From a phage: DNA of 64,000 nucleotides. The notes under the pieces are model-generated. The model worked only from the letters and a program-made list of their open reading frames with translations. It made no database searches and was not told the DNA's origin. The translations under genes and the position numbers were made by a program. Positions within the stretch are counted from its first letter, which is position 1. The number at the start of each line of letters is the position of its first letter. The DNA is taken from assembly GCA_025611195.1 (NCBI GenBank), contig GCA_025611195.1_4718.2, one strand, 5' to 3'. Positions 5,396 through 61,029 of this stretch are shown one piece after another.

Positions 5396-5433
5396 CGTTA
5401 TCTCCATAGCAGGTACCGGTAACGCGGCATAAA

Positions 5434-7260: not shown

Positions 7261-7280
7261 TAAGTAATATAGCCGTGAAA
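7261..7280 (-). promoter_or_regulatory. promoter-like motif, minus-strand TTTCACGGCTATATTACTTA
   Basis: 20-mer identical to 30572-30591; TATATTAC core 57 nt upstream of the HD-domain operon start; hairpin immediately downstream. Confidence 0.5.
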
Positions 7281-7360
7281 GGATTTGTGTTGGTCCGTTT
7301 CGATGCCCATCGTATTTTATGGATTGTCGAATGACGTCATTTTTAAGGGACATCCCCGAC

Positions 7361-16000: not shown

Positions 16001-16145
16001 TATTGCTTTCCGATTTAAATGGTTTTATCATACGGTTTACCAAATCCGTTGGACTTTACTATCGTTGTGATAGCATCGGGAATCCCTTCCCTTAGGTTAT
16101 GTAGGTGTTAATATATCTCCACTGCTGTCGTAAAGGTCAGCAGCA

Positions 16146-25201: not shown

Positions 25202-25293
25202 AACAACCTCTTTTCGCGGTTCCCTGTTAAAACGTCTTCGGCGACGTCTACCACAAAGGTAACATTTATGTCGCCTCTATGACTTTGTTCATA

Positions 25294-25313
25294 GAGGTAA
25301 TATAAGCGTGAAT
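25294..25313 (-). promoter_or_regulatory. promoter-like motif, minus-strand ATTCACGCTTATATTACCTC
   Basis: Same consensus; about 95 nt upstream of gene start 25201; abuts hairpin 25274-25297. Confidence 0.45.
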
Positions 25314-30571: not shown

Positions 30572-30591
30572 TAAGTAATATAGCCGTGAAA
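30572..30591 (-). promoter_or_regulatory. promoter-like motif, minus-strand TTTCACGGCTATATTACTTA
   Basis: Identical 20-mer; 92 nt upstream of membrane-protein gene start 30480. Confidence 0.5.
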
Positions 30592-32133: not shown

Positions 32134-34723
32134 TTAGCAATGGTTGTTAGTTGCTTCTATTTCATCAAGATACGGTTCTACGTCATCGCCCTCCACGAAT
32201 TCGTTGAACCAACAGTCAATGGTAGAAATAACCGGTGACTGGTGTTCACATTTCTTAGATACCTTAAAAGGTACGTTATTATCCATCATACCGAGTTCGG
32301 GTCGAAAACGCCCGAAATGTTTCGCAGTCCAAATGTCTGGGACGATATGGTTGTTCATCGTGGTGTTCAGCATGAGTCGCTACCTCATACCCGCAGCTTT
32401 ACCTGCAGCTTCCGGTGTTACCGGAATGTCCAGAATACATCTTATCCATATTCCAAATGGAACGTAGGACTTCCGCGCTGGATCTCGCTTGAGACCACGT
32501 ATTCGTTGAACGTTCTCCTGAACGGAGCTTCGCTGCTGATCGAACATTGTCGTGTACGGTAGGCATCCCCGAAGGGATTGTCATTGAAGCCGCGTACATC
32601 CGCTACCTTGTTTCTACCTTATCGGTTCCTCTTACGAGGCGTAGCGGCCTTAGCCCTTCCCAGCAATTCACGGAATCCAAGCTCTTCCTTTCGGAAGGCA
32701 GGGCCTATGATTAAGCATCCCCGTCGCTGTTATCGACTATATCTTCATCCTCGTTGCGAGGAGTCTCCCGTTTGGGTCTGTGTTTAACAGAGCCTACTCT
32801 ACTCAACATCGCGTCTTTCGATAGTCTGTGAGCACACATCTTAACGAACATTCGTGGATTCCTAAACAGGTGAACGTTCTTGTTGAGATGCTTCGCTGCG
32901 GATTATTCCCGTCCTACCTCTTTTACCGTACCCAGTTCATTACGCTGGCCCTCATCTATGTCACCATGATGAGTTGGTGTGTAGTCCGATTACAGAAACT
33001 TCCCGTCAATTAGAGAGTTTTAACTACGTTCCTGTTACCAGAAACCAGATCCCGACGGTATCAATAAATCAACGTAAGTTATTGATTTAATTGAAAAACT
33101 GAAATCTGCATTATCTAAATCTTCAGTATGGTTCGCTACTCCATACCCGTACCTCATGTACTGCTTACGTCTTTCACGTAAGGATAGACTATATCTTTCA
33201 CCCTCAGCATTATCTGGTCGGGGCTCCCATTTCGGCGGTCAGATGACCGGTGGTTTCCCACGCCGCTTGGCCCTAACGCCCGTAAGCGATAGTCGTTGAG
33301 CACATCTCCGTTCTGGAGACTTCGCTGCGGATTCCCCAATCCTTGCCGCTTTTACCGTACCTGAATGATTAGTTCAGCCCCACGCTCTGTTCCCAGGCAT
33401 GGTTGGTGGACGAGGCTCTAAGTAGGTTCCCGCATTAGAGAGTTCCTCGTAACAACATTTCTGCGTTACTGGGCCTAACGACCCTTTCAAGATCATCACG
33501 CTTAACCCGATGGTGTTATCCTGCGGATCGCGTTTAACCTTGGTGATTTCAAGACATTGGTTACTGCTTCGGTCAAGTGATGGGTTTCGAACAAAGCCGC
33601 ACACAATCCCATCGAACGGTGTATCAGCAATAAGCTCATCATGCAGCTCGCTCATCATCGGATGATAATTACGGACATGTTCCGCAACGAACGCACGTGC
33701 TGCTCTCGGTGAATAACCGCGATGGAATAACTTGGATTGGATATGTTCTTTATTGGTTAAAGTAAATGGTGCGTATGGGAAATGCAGATGATAATAACGA
33801 TGGTTCGCTGTTATCGAACTGATTACGGTACGCGTGGTGAATGGATGTAATGTACCTAATATGTTTTTACGCGTGATACCTTTCTTCTTACCGATGAACT
33901 CATCGAAAATCGCCGCGTGGTATTGCAGCAGCTTCAATTGCACTTTCGCCATCCAGTTTTCTTTCTTTCTGGCGCTCAAAGGTGTTGTTGGATGATAGAT
34001 ACTATTCAGTGTACCAATAGCATCGATCGCACCTTCCATTTTGCTATCTGCATAACGGCCGGTCGGTGTATTTTCGATAACGAACATCATGGCCGCAGGA
34101 AAGCTGATATACTGACTGAAGAACTTATCACGATGGATACGGATGAATTCTCGTAGCGTGTCAACTTTCTCTGTGTTCTTCGGTCCACGTAATGTGGGTC
34201 CTTTATACAAGATCTCCATGATGCGATCGAAGTTCTGTATAAAGCTATTTACACCACGCCGTATCCCGAATACATCAAATTGCTGCTCCAGATAGTTCTT
34301 GAGTTCAATGGGTCGTTTTACATTTGGACGGTAACTGGCATCAATGAGCCACGTCATCGTTTCGAAGCTTTTGATATTCAACTCGCTTGCCAGCACGAGA
34401 TGGACCAACGGGTTAATGAACGCATCGATTCCTTCAGGGACACGCGCCCAGACCGTCGAACGAATCTCCTGTTCTGCTGGGTAGGTTACAACCGTTTTAC
34501 AGTTTGGACACACCGTGCCGAGCAACTCACCGCGATTGTAGAAACCACAACCACATTGTGGCGTGATATCCAACGTATCGCTGGAGTAAACACGGGTGAT
34601 AAAACTGTTTAATTTCTTCTTCTCTTCGACGACTTTTGTATCGTAATCGTTCAACAAAATCGGCGTAAAGGGAAGTTCTGCGAGCTGTCTATCGAAACTC
34701 ACGATATCGAGCATGATGGCCAT
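32134..34723 (-). CDS. multisubunit RNA polymerase beta-prime, N-terminal subunit; proposed 4 exons (34723-33490, 33120-33102, 32726-32714, 32367-32134) split by three group I introns
   Basis: Exon 1 has the Zn-finger (CGCG..CPNC) and RNPSLDRSSNQCLEI (cf NRAPTLHRLGIQAFEP); micro-exons encode LDNADF and DGDA; last exon NTTMNNHIVP (cf QMAVHVP); exon lengths 1234+19+13+234 = 1500 nt keep frame; unspliced ORF ends in intron read-through. Confidence 0.5.
32368..32713 (-). other. group I intron C (ORF-less, about 346 nt)
   Basis: P AATTGCTGGGAAGGG with Q ATCAGCAGCGAAG (compensatory GCTG/CAGC), R CAACGAATACG with S AAGATGTATTC (compensatory P7 change); 3' tail homologous to intron A. Confidence 0.45.
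32727..33101 (-). other. group I intron B (ORF-less, about 375 nt; 3' domain unusually short)
   Basis: P AATTGACGGGAAG, Q AATCCGCAGCGAAG, R GTGCTCACAGACTATCG, S GAAGATATAGTCGATAAC; only about 8 nt between S and the proposed 3' splice G. Confidence 0.4.
33121..33489 (-). other. group I intron A (ORF-less, about 369 nt)
   Basis: Minus-strand elements P AATGCGGGAACC, Q GAATCCGCAGCGAAGTC, R GTGCTCAACGACTATCGC, S AAAGATATAGTCTATCC in correct order; possible P1 pairing exon GAUCU with GGGUC; boundaries approximate. Confidence 0.5.
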
Positions 34724-36711: not shown

Positions 36712-36780
36712 TTGGGATTCCTCTTTTCTTAAACTTTATTAAATGACGTCATTGAATCAGCTTCTACTCGCTCATTCACC

Positions 36781-36800
36781 TAGGTAATATAACCCTGAAA
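36781..36800 (-). promoter_or_regulatory. promoter-like motif, minus-strand TTTCAGGGTTATATTACCTA
   Basis: Same consensus; 70 nt upstream of the chimallin candidate start. Confidence 0.5.
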
Positions 36801-36965
36801 TTTTTTTCAATATTGGTGTAACCACATTGAACGATATAAACCCCTAGGCGAACGCTGCCGAGAAGCAACATTCTTTCTACATATAATCAGGATATGTCTG
36901 TAAACTTTTACTTCTCTTATTGAGAGTAATGTCATATCCGTTTACCATCTTCTTACGGAGTTCGT

Positions 36966-38079: not shown

Positions 38080-38111
38080 CATCCTCCCAACCCGTAAGGG
38101 AAGGGAGGATG
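38080..38111. terminator. stem-loop between convergent genes (CATCCTCCC/GGGAGGATG)
   Basis: 9-bp inverted repeat between 36966-38060 (+) and 38127-40280 (-). Confidence 0.5.
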
Positions 38112-40371: not shown

Positions 40372-40576
40372 CCAGATCGGTTTAAAGGATAATAACTGAC
40401 AGAAAGATATCGATGATGTTCGTGAAACAAGATCTTCTCTCGTGTACAATGATGCCAGATCAGAGGGAGGTTGTAACACGAGAGGTGGTTCGCCAAAGAA
40501 GGAATAAAAACACGAACCTATCTTATTTCACTGATGGCACTAACCACTCAAAATATATAGTACTGTATGTAAAAGT

Positions 40577-40990
40577 TTACTGATTAATCAAGTCGTTAGC
40601 AACAATCTTGGTGTAACCTGCCTGATTAAGAATTTGATTAATTTTTGTCATGTCGGTTGCATCCTCGATAACGATGCTGGGTTTATAGATCAGCGTCTTG
40701 GTAACAACGATTGTACTCTCCTTAATCCAAGGAATCCCTAAAATTACATACTCGCCATCAGCTGTGATGACCTCGACGTAATTGTACTTCGTCGGATCGT
40801 TCGGTACACTCGACGGGAGCCGGGAATAAATCTGTTGGTGAATGGCGTCCACATCACGGCCGTTACGTACAGCGGTACGATAATTGTACACCGCGCTAAT
40901 TTCTACTCCGTTGAAGTTAACCCCAAGTTCTGGGGCGTACACATCAAAACTCACAACAGAGCCAATCTTTTCTAAATCAGAAGCTGGCAT
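40577..40990 (-). CDS. hypothetical protein (137 aa)
   Basis: ORF track; followed by terminator hairpin 40348-40371. Confidence 0.55.
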   Translation of the reverse strand: MPASDLEKIGSVVSFDVYAPELGVNFNGVEISAVYNYRTAVRNGRDVDAIHQQIYSRLPSSVPNDPTKYNYVEVITADGEYVILGIPWIKESTIVVTKTLIYKPSIVIEDATDMTKINQILNQAGYTKIVANDLINQ

Positions 40991-51381: not shown

Positions 51382-51513
51382 GTCTGACCTATGTGGTATG
51401 GATGACAACGCTTTGCCTTCCGCGAGTGTAATCAGGAAGGTAATGTAGGTTTATTTTAATCTCCATTTCGCGATGATATGACAGTCTTTATTACGTTTAC
51501 CATCTGAGGGAGC

Positions 51514-52758
51514 ATGCTCATGTCTTCTATTTTACAGGTGTTTAATGCGCATGCGGAAGGCATTGACATCGACGAGTATTTTGTTAATCAGGTTATCCGT
51601 TACGCGACACGCTTCCGCACGCAAGACCAAGAACACATGCGTTTTTTCGGTGGGGTTCTGTTAGGCGTGCAGAAAATCCGATTCACAACAAGACATAACG
51701 ATATGTGGTTTTCCGACGTCTTGATGATGGATGAAGAAAGCTTACGACGCGATTTGAGTAAACTGCCCTTTTACAATACGCAGACCAACCGTGTTGCCTC
51801 AAACGCATTTAACCTAAGTTGCTGCTGGTTGCTTTATGCGATTTTCCATAGCAAACAAATCAAAAAAGAAAAGGTTCGTGAGGCCGGGATGCTTGCTGCA
51901 ATGCAAGTCCTTCATTATAAATTCATTTGCGGTCTGGTAGCGCGGCGTTATCCTTATAACGCCGATCCGGCTATCGCCATTAAGGCGTACGATGAGTTAA
52001 CGCTCAAATCAGGTATCAAACGCATGAATAGCTGGAATGAGTACATTGACGAACGCTGTAATGCCATCATTGCGCGTAATAGTACACATTTCAGTCGTTG
52101 GTCAACCCTGGAACCAGATAGTGTCGCCGAACGTTTTGTACGTGATGTGAATACCGGAATTCGTAAAGTTATCAACCGTATCACCGATACGTACTACGCG
52201 ATGTACGAAGAAGGTAAGAAGATCGGCACGTCCTCTCAAACTGTAGAATTAGACGACGGCCTCGCTGTCCGCGATATTAAACGCAACGAAACCACGTATC
52301 GTCAATATCTGTTCGAAATCGCTTATGACCGAACAAGTTTCGTTAAACGTGAACTCATGGTCGTCATCCTCGACGTGCATCATACTACCAATCTCCTATC
52401 CCTTGAGCGAGCGTTAAGTTATATCAGCGCTAACGTAGAGCGGCCAACAAAAGACGGAAAGCAGGTCTCTCAGATGTTGCGGCTTGTAATGGAACATGCT
52501 ATCGAGTATATCATCTTGAATAAGGTCGATATGCGCGATCTTACGTTCTTATTCTACATGCGTAACGTGTATACGTCTAACCGTACCAGCAACCCGAAAC
52601 TGTTAGAACTGCGTAAACTTGGCTCTGAAGTCATTAAGAAAGCAACCAACGCGAGAAACGACGCTGAAGCTGCAGCGACACGCACAGGTGTCTTTCTGTA
52701 TATCCTGCTTCGGGTGTTTAGTCGCAACTATTACGTTCGTCGCGCGATGTCTCGCTAA
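51514..52758 (+). CDS. hypothetical protein (414 aa)
   Basis: ATG with GAGGGAG RBS. Confidence 0.6.
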   Translation: MLMSSILQVFNAHAEGIDIDEYFVNQVIRYATRFRTQDQEHMRFFGGVLLGVQKIRFTTRHNDMWFSDVLMMDEESLRRDLSKLPFYNTQTNRVASNAFNLSCCWLLYAIFHSKQIKKEKVREAGMLAAMQVLHYKFICGLVARRYPYNADPAIAIKAYDELTLKSGIKRMNSWNEYIDERCNAIIARNSTHFSRWSTLEPDSVAERFVRDVNTGIRKVINRITDTYYAMYEEGKKIGTSSQTVELDDGLAVRDIKRNETTYRQYLFEIAYDRTSFVKRELMVVILDVHHTTNLLSLERALSYISANVERPTKDGKQVSQMLRLVMEHAIEYIILNKVDMRDLTFLFYMRNVYTSNRTSNPKLLELRKLGSEVIKKATNARNDAEAAATRTGVFLYILLRVFSRNYYVRRAMSR

Positions 52759-52910
52759 CAATGTAACAGTAAAACTTTACTGATGTTGGTTATTATTTGA
52801 AGCATAGGGCTTCACCCAGGAGTACCATCCCTGTAAGTCGTTTGTCCTCTCCTGGTTAACTGTCGTTCTCTCACAGTGCTCGACAGACCAAAAATGCTCA
52901 AGCCTCATAG

Positions 52911-52939
52911 CCTCCTCTGGGAATGGAACCCAGAGGAGG
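52911..52939. terminator. stem-loop CCTCCTCTGGG/CCCAGAGGAGG
   Basis: 11-bp perfect inverted repeat between 51514-52758 (+) and 52952-53260 (-); plus strand followed by a T-rich run. Confidence 0.5.
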
Positions 52940-52951
52940 ACTATGTTTGCT

Positions 52952-53260
52952 TTAAAATTCAATGCGACCCTTAGTTGTAAACAATACACCTCTTTGCCAA
53001 CAGAAAAGATCCTCCGATTGAGCGCAAACACGAATACCCGCATCGAATAGATGTTTTGTTCTGGCGCTTAAACAATCTGGATCTTCTACATACAACAGAA
53101 GACGTTGGCATTTATTTTGAATGCGCTCGACAAGGATGTTCTTATCGCTTAAAATAAAATGCGCGTTATCTGTTAAGTTATCGTCGGTTTCCAGCTGCCC
53201 GACAAGTTTGATTAAAATACGTAATTGCTCAAGTGTGTCATGATCAAATGAATCGCCCAT
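52952..53260 (-). CDS. hypothetical protein (102 aa)
   Basis: ATG at 53260 with GAGGTA RBS. Confidence 0.45.
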   Translation of the reverse strand: MGDSFDHDTLEQLRILIKLVGQLETDDNLTDNAHFILSDKNILVERIQNKCQRLLLYVEDPDCLSARTKHLFDAGIRVCAQSEDLFCWQRGVLFTTKGRIEF

Positions 53261-53304
53261 GGCGTACCTCAACGTTATACGTCGTTAGTATTATAATACG
53301 TTAT

Positions 53305-53334
53305 AGTCTCCCCGCCGGTATTAACGGGGAGTCT
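53305..53334 (-). terminator. stem-loop after terminase gene (CTCCCCG/CGGGGAG)
   Basis: Inverted repeat just after the terminase stop at 53346. Confidence 0.45.
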
Positions 53335-53345
53335 GCGGACTACTC

Positions 53346-55577
53346 TTAGAAAAAACCCCCTGGTCTGTATTGGCCCATCGTCATCCACGCGTTACGAGAA
53401 ATATTCCGTTCGTTCGAAGAGCGACTTATTTGACGATACGTATTCGCTCGTTCCTCCCTTGCTTTCGTAATCATTGCGTCGATAGAGACAGACGCTGAAT
53501 CCTCCCCACGTATTTTTCCTTTATAGGTAAGAAGCTCCGCCTCCAACCGATCCAAGATAAGGCCATTGGTTTCGGTCTTAAGCAGCTCATAGATTTCAGC
53601 AACGCGTTGACGTAGCTTCGCCTGCTGTTGGTTAAGATAAGCTTCATACGGATCTATTTCACCCGTCACAGATGCCGGTAAACGACTCATGACTTTAAGC
53701 GGATCGATACCGTAATGAATCTGTTTCTTAGCGCGCTTGATAAACCACATCGCTAACATCCATGCGAACGTCATGTCATCGTGCATTCCATCCTGGTGGT
53801 CGACACGCCCATCTTTGATAACCAACCCAAGAATCTCGGAACACAGCATCTTATCGCGTAACTGCCCGCGGGTTTCTACGATACCTTCCATCAAGATGTC
53901 GGAATACAACTCCATGCGTTTGCGTGCATCCGTCGTGAAGCCCAAATGCCGTTTACGCTGAGCGTACCAACTTTCATCACGCATGCTCAACGGCAGTTTC
54001 AGGTCTTCGAACATTGCTGGATTATCGGCATGTCTGTCCACAATCGTGTTGTATACACGTTTGAATACGTCGATGCCTGCTTGCCGCAAGAACTCTTCAA
54101 TTGCGTCTAACAACATGATCGCACTGCTCTTACGTTCGGGAATCAACGTAACGTTCTTATAACGCATCATGAAGTTGGCCATCCAACGAGCAAAAGAAAG
54201 CAGACTCAGTTTATTAAAACGTCCTGTCGCAACAACTTCTGCTGTTTCCACATCCACCATCACCAAACCGATCGCGTCACGACCAATCGCGTCACTGGTA
54301 TCTAAACCAGCAACCACCTTATTGTTCTGCATGTATGTCTCGATTTGACCTCGAGGTATATACCAGTTAATGCAGTAGCCTTCAGGTGAGATCTCGATAT
54401 GGTCGATTTCACGTTGTCCTGCCATGATCATCTCAACCATCTCAGCGGTTAACGGGCTTTCTGCTGAACCGTTGGTCCAAATGTTCATGTAGTCACGGTC
54501 TTTCTGAAGTTTATCACCTTCCGTTTCGTTCATGGTTTTTGCTAACCATTCGTCACTGAATCCCAATTGAGCATGGTTCCATTGTGCCCCGATCCTGACG
54601 GTCGCTTTGCTGAGCTCGCATGGTACGTTGTTCAATACCGTCTGATGCAGATGCTTTTCGTTACGGCAGTCAAAGAAACTTTCAGAAAACGGCGCGGAAC
54701 GCATGAAAACTTCATAAGCCCATTTACCCTCGCGTTTATCCAATTCACCTGCTGTTGTCGTATAGATGATACTTGTCAGGTCGCCGTTGCTTAATGCTTC
54801 ATCGCGTGCTGCACCCATCGCACCGATACCAGCAGGGACAATGATTTCGATGTATTTCGTAAACGCGGTTTCGTCGCTATGGAATATCGGGGTTGTTAGA
54901 CCACGACCGATGTTTGTTGCTTGTTTCTTATCCGAACGTGGAATCTTTACCGATAACTTGTTCTTGAAACGCGTGTAGGTTACGTTCTCTTTGTTCGATG
55001 AATCACGGCTATCCAGCGTCCAGAGATACGCAGGCAGTAGATCGCGTATACTACGCACATCTTCTACTGTTTTCGTACGGGCGTCACCGTCTTTTGTTAA
55101 CTGAATAACCTCGGTGTTTCGACTACGAACATAGGTTAGATAGCAGAACAATCCTAACATGGTCATGGATTTACCCGTCTGACGTATCTGTATCTGATAC
55201 CAGTTCGTTCGGGTAAATATTCCCCAGAGCATCGGAATGTTACCGCGGTTAGCACGGAACGAGATCTTGTTATCACCCGCTTTAGCCGGAACACGCATCA
55301 CTTCACGGAAGAAGTACCACGGATTAAGATAGCATTCCGCACTGATCATCTGAATCTGTTCTGACGTCAAATTCGGTGCGTGGGGGTCAACACCGATTAA
55401 TCTTGGGTTTAATAACGCCATGAAAAACGCAGAGTTTCGGACACCGAATTCACGACGATACAAGATCGCTAAATCACGCCAACTTGTGTTTGTTGTTTCC
55501 CAGTGTGGAACAGCTTGAGGAAAATAATCCCAATCTTCCTCAAACAAGATGATTTTCTTCGGATCGACAATCGACAT
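53346..55577 (-). CDS. terL: terminase large subunit
   Basis: Walker A-like QIRQTGKSMTM; nuclease-domain motifs VVAGLDTSDAIGRDAIGLVMVDVE and DGMHDDMTFAWMLAMW. Confidence 0.65.
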   Translation of the reverse strand: MSIVDPKKIILFEEDWDYFPQAVPHWETTNTSWRDLAILYRREFGVRNSAFFMALLNPRLIGVDPHAPNLTSEQIQMISAECYLNPWYFFREVMRVPAKAGDNKISFRANRGNIPMLWGIFTRTNWYQIQIRQTGKSMTMLGLFCYLTYVRSRNTEVIQLTKDGDARTKTVEDVRSIRDLLPAYLWTLDSRDSSNKENVTYTRFKNKLSVKIPRSDKKQATNIGRGLTTPIFHSDETAFTKYIEIIVPAGIGAMGAARDEALSNGDLTSIIYTTTAGELDKREGKWAYEVFMRSAPFSESFFDCRNEKHLHQTVLNNVPCELSKATVRIGAQWNHAQLGFSDEWLAKTMNETEGDKLQKDRDYMNIWTNGSAESPLTAEMVEMIMAGQREIDHIEISPEGYCINWYIPRGQIETYMQNNKVVAGLDTSDAIGRDAIGLVMVDVETAEVVATGRFNKLSLLSFARWMANFMMRYKNVTLIPERKSSAIMLLDAIEEFLRQAGIDVFKRVYNTIVDRHADNPAMFEDLKLPLSMRDESWYAQRKRHLGFTTDARKRMELYSDILMEGIVETRGQLRDKMLCSEILGLVIKDGRVDHQDGMHDDMTFAWMLAMWFIKRAKKQIHYGIDPLKVMSRLPASVTGEIDPYEAYLNQQQAKLRQRVAEIYELLKTETNGLILDRLEAELLTYKGKIRGEDSASVSIDAMITKAREERANTYRQISRSSNERNISRNAWMTMGQYRPGGFF

Positions 55578-60886: not shown

Positions 60887-61029
60887 ATGTAATTCCTTTA
60901 TTACGGCATATAAGAAAACGGGTTAAGCACACAGATTTACGCATAATTGTAATATTTTACGTTATGCCTATGACATTGTGTCACGTGTGCAATTATGTCA
61001 TACAATTTCCTTAAATTAAGGAGAGTTCC

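Follow-up and report, generated by a model that had tools for sequence, protein, structure and literature searches.

The spacer between the terminase large subunit gene (terL) and the small gene that follows it in Goslar-like jumbo phages contains a 12-bp perfect palindrome, GTATTATAATAC, which appears from its conservation to be under purifying selection where it is present and yet is dispensable. It is probably a minor, dispensable site of transcription control and not a chance pattern. Our tentative reading of the aligned spacers is that the palindrome may form the AT-rich core of an internal promoter of a non-early class, or a regulator site, for the small gene; the promoter identity, the position of the transcription start and the polymerase or factor that would read the site are what we infer. 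The window analysed here (the whole stretch of phage DNA, 64,000 nucleotides) is ~95-96% identical over the region to Escherichia phage vB_EcoM_Goslar, a nucleus-forming jumbo phage (chimallivirus), and viral, metagenome, and isolate assemblies supplied 51 Goslar-like genomes for comparison, with 22 distinct spacers between terL and the homologs of Goslar gp223, the small gene.

The palindrome had been noted in a sequence-only reading of this DNA, and its sequence at 53288-53299 is confirmed. Its interior consists of A and T only and is bounded by G and C, and it reads TATAAT on both strands; the Goslar counterpart lies at 189480-189491 (minus strand). Along the minus strand, the terL gene and its stop codon are followed by a hairpin (53308-53331). 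A short variable stretch leads from there to the palindrome, and a further 27 nt with the ribosome-binding site (RBS) lead to the ATG at 53260 (Table 1); the spacer measures 85 nt. The order of hairpin, palindrome, and gene start given by the sequence-only reading is therefore right, but the hairpin, which that reading called the terminator of the terminase gene, is no classical intrinsic terminator: the intrinsic terminator scan did not call it, and the U-tract is missing directly after the stem.

Table 1. Coordinates in the window of the palindrome, its surroundings, and the two repeated motif families with which it was compared
Feature	Position	Strand	Remarks
Palindrome GTATTATAATAC	53288-53299		invariant in 46/51 genomes; unique; not of the early class
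Hairpin of the terminase transcript	53308-53331	-	fold; arms conserved
GACGTA block	53278-53283	-	invariant; part of CGACGTATAAC
AACGTTGAGGTACGC block with RBS GAGG (53267-53270)	53262-53276	-	invariant
26-nt segment, palindrome plus CGACGTATA	53276-53301	-	absent from 5/51 genomes
102-aa gene, homolog of Goslar gp223	52952-53260	-	codon-position variation, homologs
Terminase large subunit gene, Goslar gp222	53346-55577	-	PHROG terminase match
Early promoters	7264-7271, 25297-25304, 30575-30582, 36784-36791, 51440-51447	-	weight matrix
GTAA-N4-TTAC dyads	36900-36911, 40569-40580, 52769-52780, 60949-60960		four copies

Palindromy by itself is no more than chance gives. Markov simulations predict 17.9 ± 3.9 perfect 12-bp palindromes for the window, where 22 are found, and 3.0 AT-rich ones, where 2 are found; longer perfect palindromes occur elsewhere in the window (8 of 14 bp, 3 extending to 16 bp). 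GTATTATAATAC is present as a single copy in the 64-kb window, even when one mismatch is allowed, and as a single copy in the 237-kb Goslar genome. Beyond the early promoters discussed below, neither the window nor Goslar contains near-exact repeats of GTATTATAATAC or of its sub-motifs, and no other sites share its core at a promoter-like distance. The genome-wide search that the sequence-only reading had proposed thus returned a unique site, which is half of what that reading had named as speaking against its own idea. The feature of GTATTATAATAC that does exceed chance is its conservation.

When the 20 palindrome-carrying variants are aligned, the spacer has 91 columns, of which 37 (41%) are variable, a proportion similar to that of the third codon positions of the adjacent gene (45/102), and since synonymous divergence in this gene reaches up to 0.40, the spacer evolves nearly neutrally. 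All 12 positions of the palindrome are invariant in 20/20 carrying variants (46/51 genomes). The spacer contains five invariant blocks, i.e., the two hairpin arms, GTATTATAATAC, GACGTA, and AACGTTGAGGTACGC, the third of which is exactly the palindrome, with substitutions and indels abutting both edges. The probability that a random 12-column window is invariant is ~0.001, or ~0.01-0.06 if the count is limited to placements that fall within invariant blocks of the alignment. In 45/46 carriers the palindrome and the ATG are 27 nt apart (the exception, with 28 nt, is on a 1.1-kb contig), and that from the hairpin to the palindrome varies through indels, by -7 to +4 nt in the alignment. On the minus strand, the GACGTA block begins 4 nt after the palindrome; CGACGTATAAC, which includes it, has three copies in Goslar, all of them intergenic, against an estimated chance expectation of ~0.1; it may represent a degenerate version of the early promoter's upstream half. 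Taken together, these features point to a cis-acting element that sets the position of something with respect to the gene: a footprint that is exact, a nearly constant distance to the ATG, a place just behind the conserved RNA hairpin that closes a late block, an AT-only interior with TATAAT, and an invariant block at the start predicted by a -10-type geometry.

Five of the 51 genomes lack the palindrome owing to the same 26-nt deletion between ATA microhomologies. The deletion occurs on two sequence backgrounds (spacer variants v3 and v14) and in independent samples (loci L017, L021, L029, L057, and L061; OGZS01000006.1 and GCA_044979225.1 are examples of the deleted form), and the small gene is intact in 5/5, so any function of the palindrome is non-essential and the gene can evidently be expressed, or dispensed with, without it. 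No deeper conservation of the palindrome was found outside the Goslar group. Of the relatives outside the group, the closest has a terL with 64% identity, and its small gene starts 14 nt after terL with only an RBS between them; in another relative, it starts 5 nt after an inserted gene, without a spacer; and in Erwinia phage Ea35-70, a 71-nt spacer carries an unrelated hairpin with 11-bp arms and no palindrome. The hairpin-plus-palindrome spacer is restricted to Goslar-like genomes, and the gaps of 5-14 nt without a spacer in the closest outside relatives indicate that it arose within the Goslar group, as an added regulatory module and not as a remnant. Judging from this gene arrangement, the small gene was probably co-transcribed with the terminase block originally.

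The pattern of substitutions in the 102-aa open reading frame, the homolog of Goslar gp223 (YP_009820896), indicates a real gene under strong purifying selection: 37 coding variants give 8 proteins, variable sites are distributed 9/3/45 over the three codon positions, and pN/pS is 0.04. The protein has no sequence matches in Pfam, PHROG, or PDB. Close homologs (at least 95%) are found only in Goslar-like genomes; a sensitive search yielded two distant homologs with 50% and 33% identity, and Ea35-70 encodes a weak homolog (29% identity) at the same position after terL, the family consisting of small proteins that follow terL in several chimalliviruses. The "gp223" of a core-genome paper is that of phage RAY and not of Goslar. 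The single-sequence AlphaFold model was unusable (pLDDT 43), and a model from a 6-sequence alignment (pLDDT 88.6) predicts three helices and a small sheet. This model has no structural match in PDB with E below 1 and resembles uncharacterised ~100-aa proteins from other jumbo phages. No helix-turn-helix or ribbon-helix-helix fold is seen in it, and nothing in the model suggests the DNA-binding protein that the gene downstream of an autoregulatory operator would encode. Protein clusters of gp223 further reveal Goslar-like contigs of ~235-250 kb in hundreds of isolate assemblies of E. coli, Salmonella, and Shigella. Goslar-like genomes are also present in gut metagenomes, and complete E. coli genomes and the plasmid collection contain no copy, which suggests that these phages are often carried with, or contaminate, enterobacterial isolates.

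On the other side of the palindrome, the spacer is preceded by the late structural block, whose final gene is terL. In its transcript the hairpin (CTCCCCGCC/GGCGGGGAG) has a 9-bp stem, including two G.U pairs that form only in the minus-strand transcript, and a 6-nt loop. The arms GACTCCCCG and GGGAG are invariant among the spacer variants, and the stem is kept in 11 variants with one-sided changes only, e.g., G-C to G-U. Between the hairpin and the AU-rich palindrome lie 6-13 variable nucleotides. The fold of the spacer over the whole region is no better than that of shuffled sequences (z = -1.17), and with Rfam 15 the region 52600-53600 was negative up to E = 1, as was the entire window when judged by the gathering score.

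Jumbo phages that encode RNA polymerases each have an AT-rich early motif near -10 (PMC7598289, PMC4666361, PMC8244752, PMC12809450), which in phiKZ-like phages is phage-specific, ~10 nt long, and used by the virion RNA polymerase (PMC7598289, PMC8244752). The Goslar early family that we derived from oriented upstream regions, tttCACGrC-TAyATTAC-yT...TGA, has 13 copies in Goslar (L002-L006), all on the minus strand and one of them before the nuclear-shell (chimallin) gene. Early sites score 31-54 with the corresponding weight matrix and the next best site 17.6. At -23.8 (rank 787 of the window), the palindrome does not belong to the early promoters, and the suggestion of the sequence-only reading that the site belongs to a non-early class holds. 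Like the early promoters of phiKZ-like phages and of Goslar, the palindrome is an AT-rich box that ends in TAC and lies a few tens of nucleotides upstream of a start codon on the gene strand; its 8-mer TATAATAC is one mismatch away from the Goslar core TATATTAC, and the bases that follow it (T-A/T-A-C-G) resemble those of some early sites. It differs from them in being unique and palindromic, and its single mismatch, A for T in the core TAyATTAC, affects a position that is invariant in 13/13 early promoters of Goslar and 5/5 of the window. Neither the upstream tttCACGrC nor the downstream yT-N3-TGA is present, and the upstream flank of the palindrome is the most variable part of the spacer.

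Some variation was also observed around the early promoters themselves. A degenerate copy, TACATAAC, is located at 16103 in the window. The early promoter at 25262-25304 has a hairpin and CGACATAAATGTTAC inserted between TATATTAC and CTTTGTG (compare Goslar ~160787), and a similar insert, a hairpin with CGACGTATAACGTTAC, is found in another early promoter at Goslar 226650-226695; CGACGTATAAC, just downstream of the palindrome at 53288-53299, was noted alongside these hairpin inserts. Another perfect palindrome, AATGACGTCATT, occurs at 7330-7341 and 36742-36753 in the window and also twice in Goslar; each copy has an early promoter ~40-60 nt away, and one is within the leader of the nuclear-shell gene.

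The late promoters of phiKZ, used by the non-virion RNA polymerase, consist of TATG, whose G is +1, and of flanking determinants that are undefined (PMC4666361, PMC12809450), and strand opening has been assigned to a sigma-like subunit that acts on unknown determinants (PMC4666361, PMC12809450). The palindrome likewise follows a late-gene block, and its AT-rich stretch could help strand opening. It differs from the phiKZ late promoters in that TATG is missing between it and the start codon; within these 27 nt the motif is absent from both strands, and it is absent from the other side of the palindrome as well. In the tail-sheath spacer of Goslar, an AT-rich 12-mer (GTAA-N4-TTAC) is flanked by two diverging TTATGC motifs. 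Elsewhere, GC-rich hairpins followed directly by TTTATGC(C/T)G are found at 5425, 9537, 17595, 20662, 26933, 40343, and 44389 in the window and in many Goslar spacers, and TTTATGC is ~5-fold enriched in intergenic DNA; by analogy with phiKZ, where TATG is the late start consensus, these units may be combined terminator and late-promoter modules.

A second repeated family to which the palindrome bears a resemblance is a dyad, GTAA-N4-TTAC, often in the form tctGTAAA-NN-TTTACt, which occurs at 16 Goslar loci against 4.4 ± 2.0 expected, is specific in its spacing, and is intergenic at at least nine of the loci. Members lie 38-92 nt upstream of genes that are mainly structural, e.g., those for the major head protein, the tail sheath, and virion proteins. 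At the copy at 52769-52780, 50 genomes have invariant arms of GTAAA-NN-TTTAC and differ in the flanks and in the centre, where GT is replaced by AC. The phiKZ "middle" promoters have been described as weak motifs in which TACT comes after an A-rich run, ~22 nt before the start (PMC8244752), and this family resembles that description; GTAA-N4-TTAC is a candidate middle or late promoter element or regulator site. Family and palindrome share the format of a 12-bp GTA...TAC dyad with a mostly AT centre, intergenic and upstream of genes, including the 4-nt spacing and the GTA/TAC ends. They differ in that the arms of the palindrome are GTAT/ATAC, and in that the family is repeated with a free centre, whereas the palindrome is a singleton with a fixed centre and lies 27 nt before its start codon. 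For GTAT-N4-ATAC, the 5 loci found are no enrichment over the 4.7 expected, and 53288-53299 is the sole intergenic one. The palindrome resembles the family and is not a member of it. A wider pattern, "GTA-W6-TAC" (3 Goslar loci, all intergenic; 2 sites in the window against 0.44 expected), was rejected: it had been defined after seeing the data, AT-rich 12-mers are ~22% intergenic anyway, and it resolved into GTAA-N4-TTAC, a pattern that the palindrome does not match. Footprinting of GTAATATTTTAC in the tail-sheath spacer was likewise set aside, as this spacer is near-invariant (1/143 columns, 12 genomes) and has no resolving power.

In the reading that we tentatively favour, the palindrome would be a discrete DNA control element that arose in the Goslar group and marks a separate expression unit for the small gene. 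Its role would be that of a -10-like core in a weak internal promoter, and it might at the same time be the binding site of a symmetric factor; its reader would be one of the phage's own RNA polymerases, with a promoter class that is not early. The hairpin would end or stabilise the terminase transcript, after which transcription would restart ~5-7 nt downstream of the palindrome; if TATAAT serves as a -10-like box, the start would fall at the invariant GACGTA, with +1 at ~53283/53282 (minus strand), leaving a 5' leader of ~23 nt that contains the RBS. In favour of a promoter, the next invariant block begins at the point where a start is expected from a -10-type geometry, and the operator or promoter element that the sequence-only reading had envisaged is consistent with the strict footprint, the near-constant 27 nt to the ATG, and the position after the hairpin. 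On the other hand, the palindrome matches no repeated promoter class, a singleton would need a polymerase specificity seen nowhere else in the genome, and a perfect dyad with 12 fixed positions is more typical of a dimeric protein site. The promoter and the symmetric regulator can both hold.

A pure operator, at which a dimeric DNA-binding protein of phage or host represses or times the small gene or the read-through from terL and which is itself no promoter, seems to us somewhat unlikely. It would explain the perfect two-fold symmetry and the exact coincidence of the conservation boundaries with the dyad; a conserved 12-mer is a perfect palindrome by chance in 1 of 4096 cases, though this one was picked for being one, and the related-format GTAAA-NN-TTTAC at 52769-52780 shows the classic footprint of a dimer site, with invariant arms and variable centre and flanks. 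However, there is a single site in 237 kb, the predicted fold of the adjacent gene product leaves autoregulation unsupported, and a simple roadblock does not require a near-constant distance to the ATG. That the palindrome has no function of its own, and that its conserved look results from sampling, hitch-hiking, or a low local mutation rate, is unlikely. Such a view is compatible with the chance rate of 12-bp palindromes (22 against 17.9), with the uniqueness of GTATTATAATAC, with its deletion in ~10% of natural genomes that retain the gene, and with the close relationship of the genomes, in which variable columns represent a limited number of events, but several lineages show substitutions and indels next to the palindrome on either side, synonymous divergence in the adjacent gene extends to 0.40, and 12 invariant columns on the dyad have a P of ~0.001 (or ~0.01-0.06).

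Action at the RNA level, as an AU-rich single-stranded processing site of the RNase E type or a leader element that separates the terL and gp223 messages or sets their stability, is quite improbable: cleavage sites are degenerate and need neither 12 fixed bases nor dyad symmetry, and the fold (z = -1.17 against shuffles) and the absent Rfam match give it no help, even if the upstream hairpin looks RNA-like, with G.U pairs only in the minus-strand transcript, and the AU-rich palindrome is predicted to be mostly unpaired. It is very unlikely that the site serves as the -10 element of a host sigma-70 promoter, used when the genome is exposed to the host RNA polymerase, e.g., in an abortive or carrier state. 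The -10 hexamer TATAAT is perfect on both strands, a purine stands at the predicted +1, 7 nt downstream, and Goslar-like contigs are found in hundreds of enterobacterial isolate assemblies. Unlike a sigma-70 promoter, the site has neither a -35 element (best 1-2 of 6) nor the TG extension of an extended -10; the sigma-70 scan did not call it, and the -35 position falls in the hairpin arm and the variable spacer. Infection by related jumbo phages has moreover been reported as independent of the host RNA polymerase (PMC13282480, PMC4666361), and that polymerase as dispensable for this phage family. Avoidance of TATAAT in the genome (76 against 140) was considered as a sign of the host polymerase and rejected, as the depletion is not specific: hexamers made of A and T alone are all depleted (median ratio 0.69). 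A role in packaging, as a pac-like recognition element next to the terminase gene, would suit a site directly downstream of terL and beside the small protein that follows terL in several chimalliviruses; with the palindrome deleted in 5/51 natural genomes from independent samples and absent from relatives that keep both genes, it is extremely improbable.

A broader speculation, to which we give little credence, is that the palindrome and the GTAA-N4-TTAC dyads would be sites of one symmetric phage-encoded factor that binds or opens DNA, "TATA-box-like", and tells the non-virion RNA polymerase of nucleus-forming phages where to open it, with GTAT/ATAC as a variant half-site of different timing or strength. 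If true, the idea would fill in an upstream determinant that is missing for polymerases with TATG as their only known signal. Apart from the early motif, the promoter logic of nucleus-forming jumbo phages is poorly defined, and a base-resolved 12-bp element together with natural deletion variants offers a ready-made test of whether AT-rich dyads start or gate transcription; RNA-seq of Goslar has been published (10.1101/2023.09.20.558163). As the element is tied to one small non-essential gene, its direct importance is modest, and annotation of Goslar-like genomes will probably gain more from the early consensus and from the GTAA-N4-TTAC dyads.

Several other features of the window were recorded. 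Between gp223 and the convergent gene lies a non-coding block of ~125 nt (~52781-52905) that is near-invariant in 50 genomes and folds into a three-hairpin junction with z ~-3.8 on either strand. A T-run inside it varies between 5 and 10 nt, so the block is not coding. Along the plus strand, GTAAAACTTTAC comes before the block and a strong hairpin (52911-52939) after it, and one substitution is G.U-compatible only on this strand; the block is a candidate small RNA, by fold and conservation, with no match in Rfam. In variant u8, the loop of the bidirectional hairpin at 52911-52939 is inverted (TTCCATT to AATGGAA), and a nearby 12-mer is also found in the opposite orientation (GTAAAGTTTTAC to GTAAAACTTTAC). 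Further away, the window at 32728-33483 is without Goslar 168217-169281, which holds the HNH endonuclease open reading frame gp186 beside an annotated group I intron; a 368-nt segment not present in Goslar (33115-33482) takes the place of this region, and no Rfam intron is found in the window at the gathering score. Finally, an imperfect hairpin repeat of ~26 nt, TCCTCCAACCCGTAAGGGAAGGAGGA, is present at 38087-38104 in the window and at 11 Goslar loci; it is often followed by GGTTATG, i.e., RBS and start codon.
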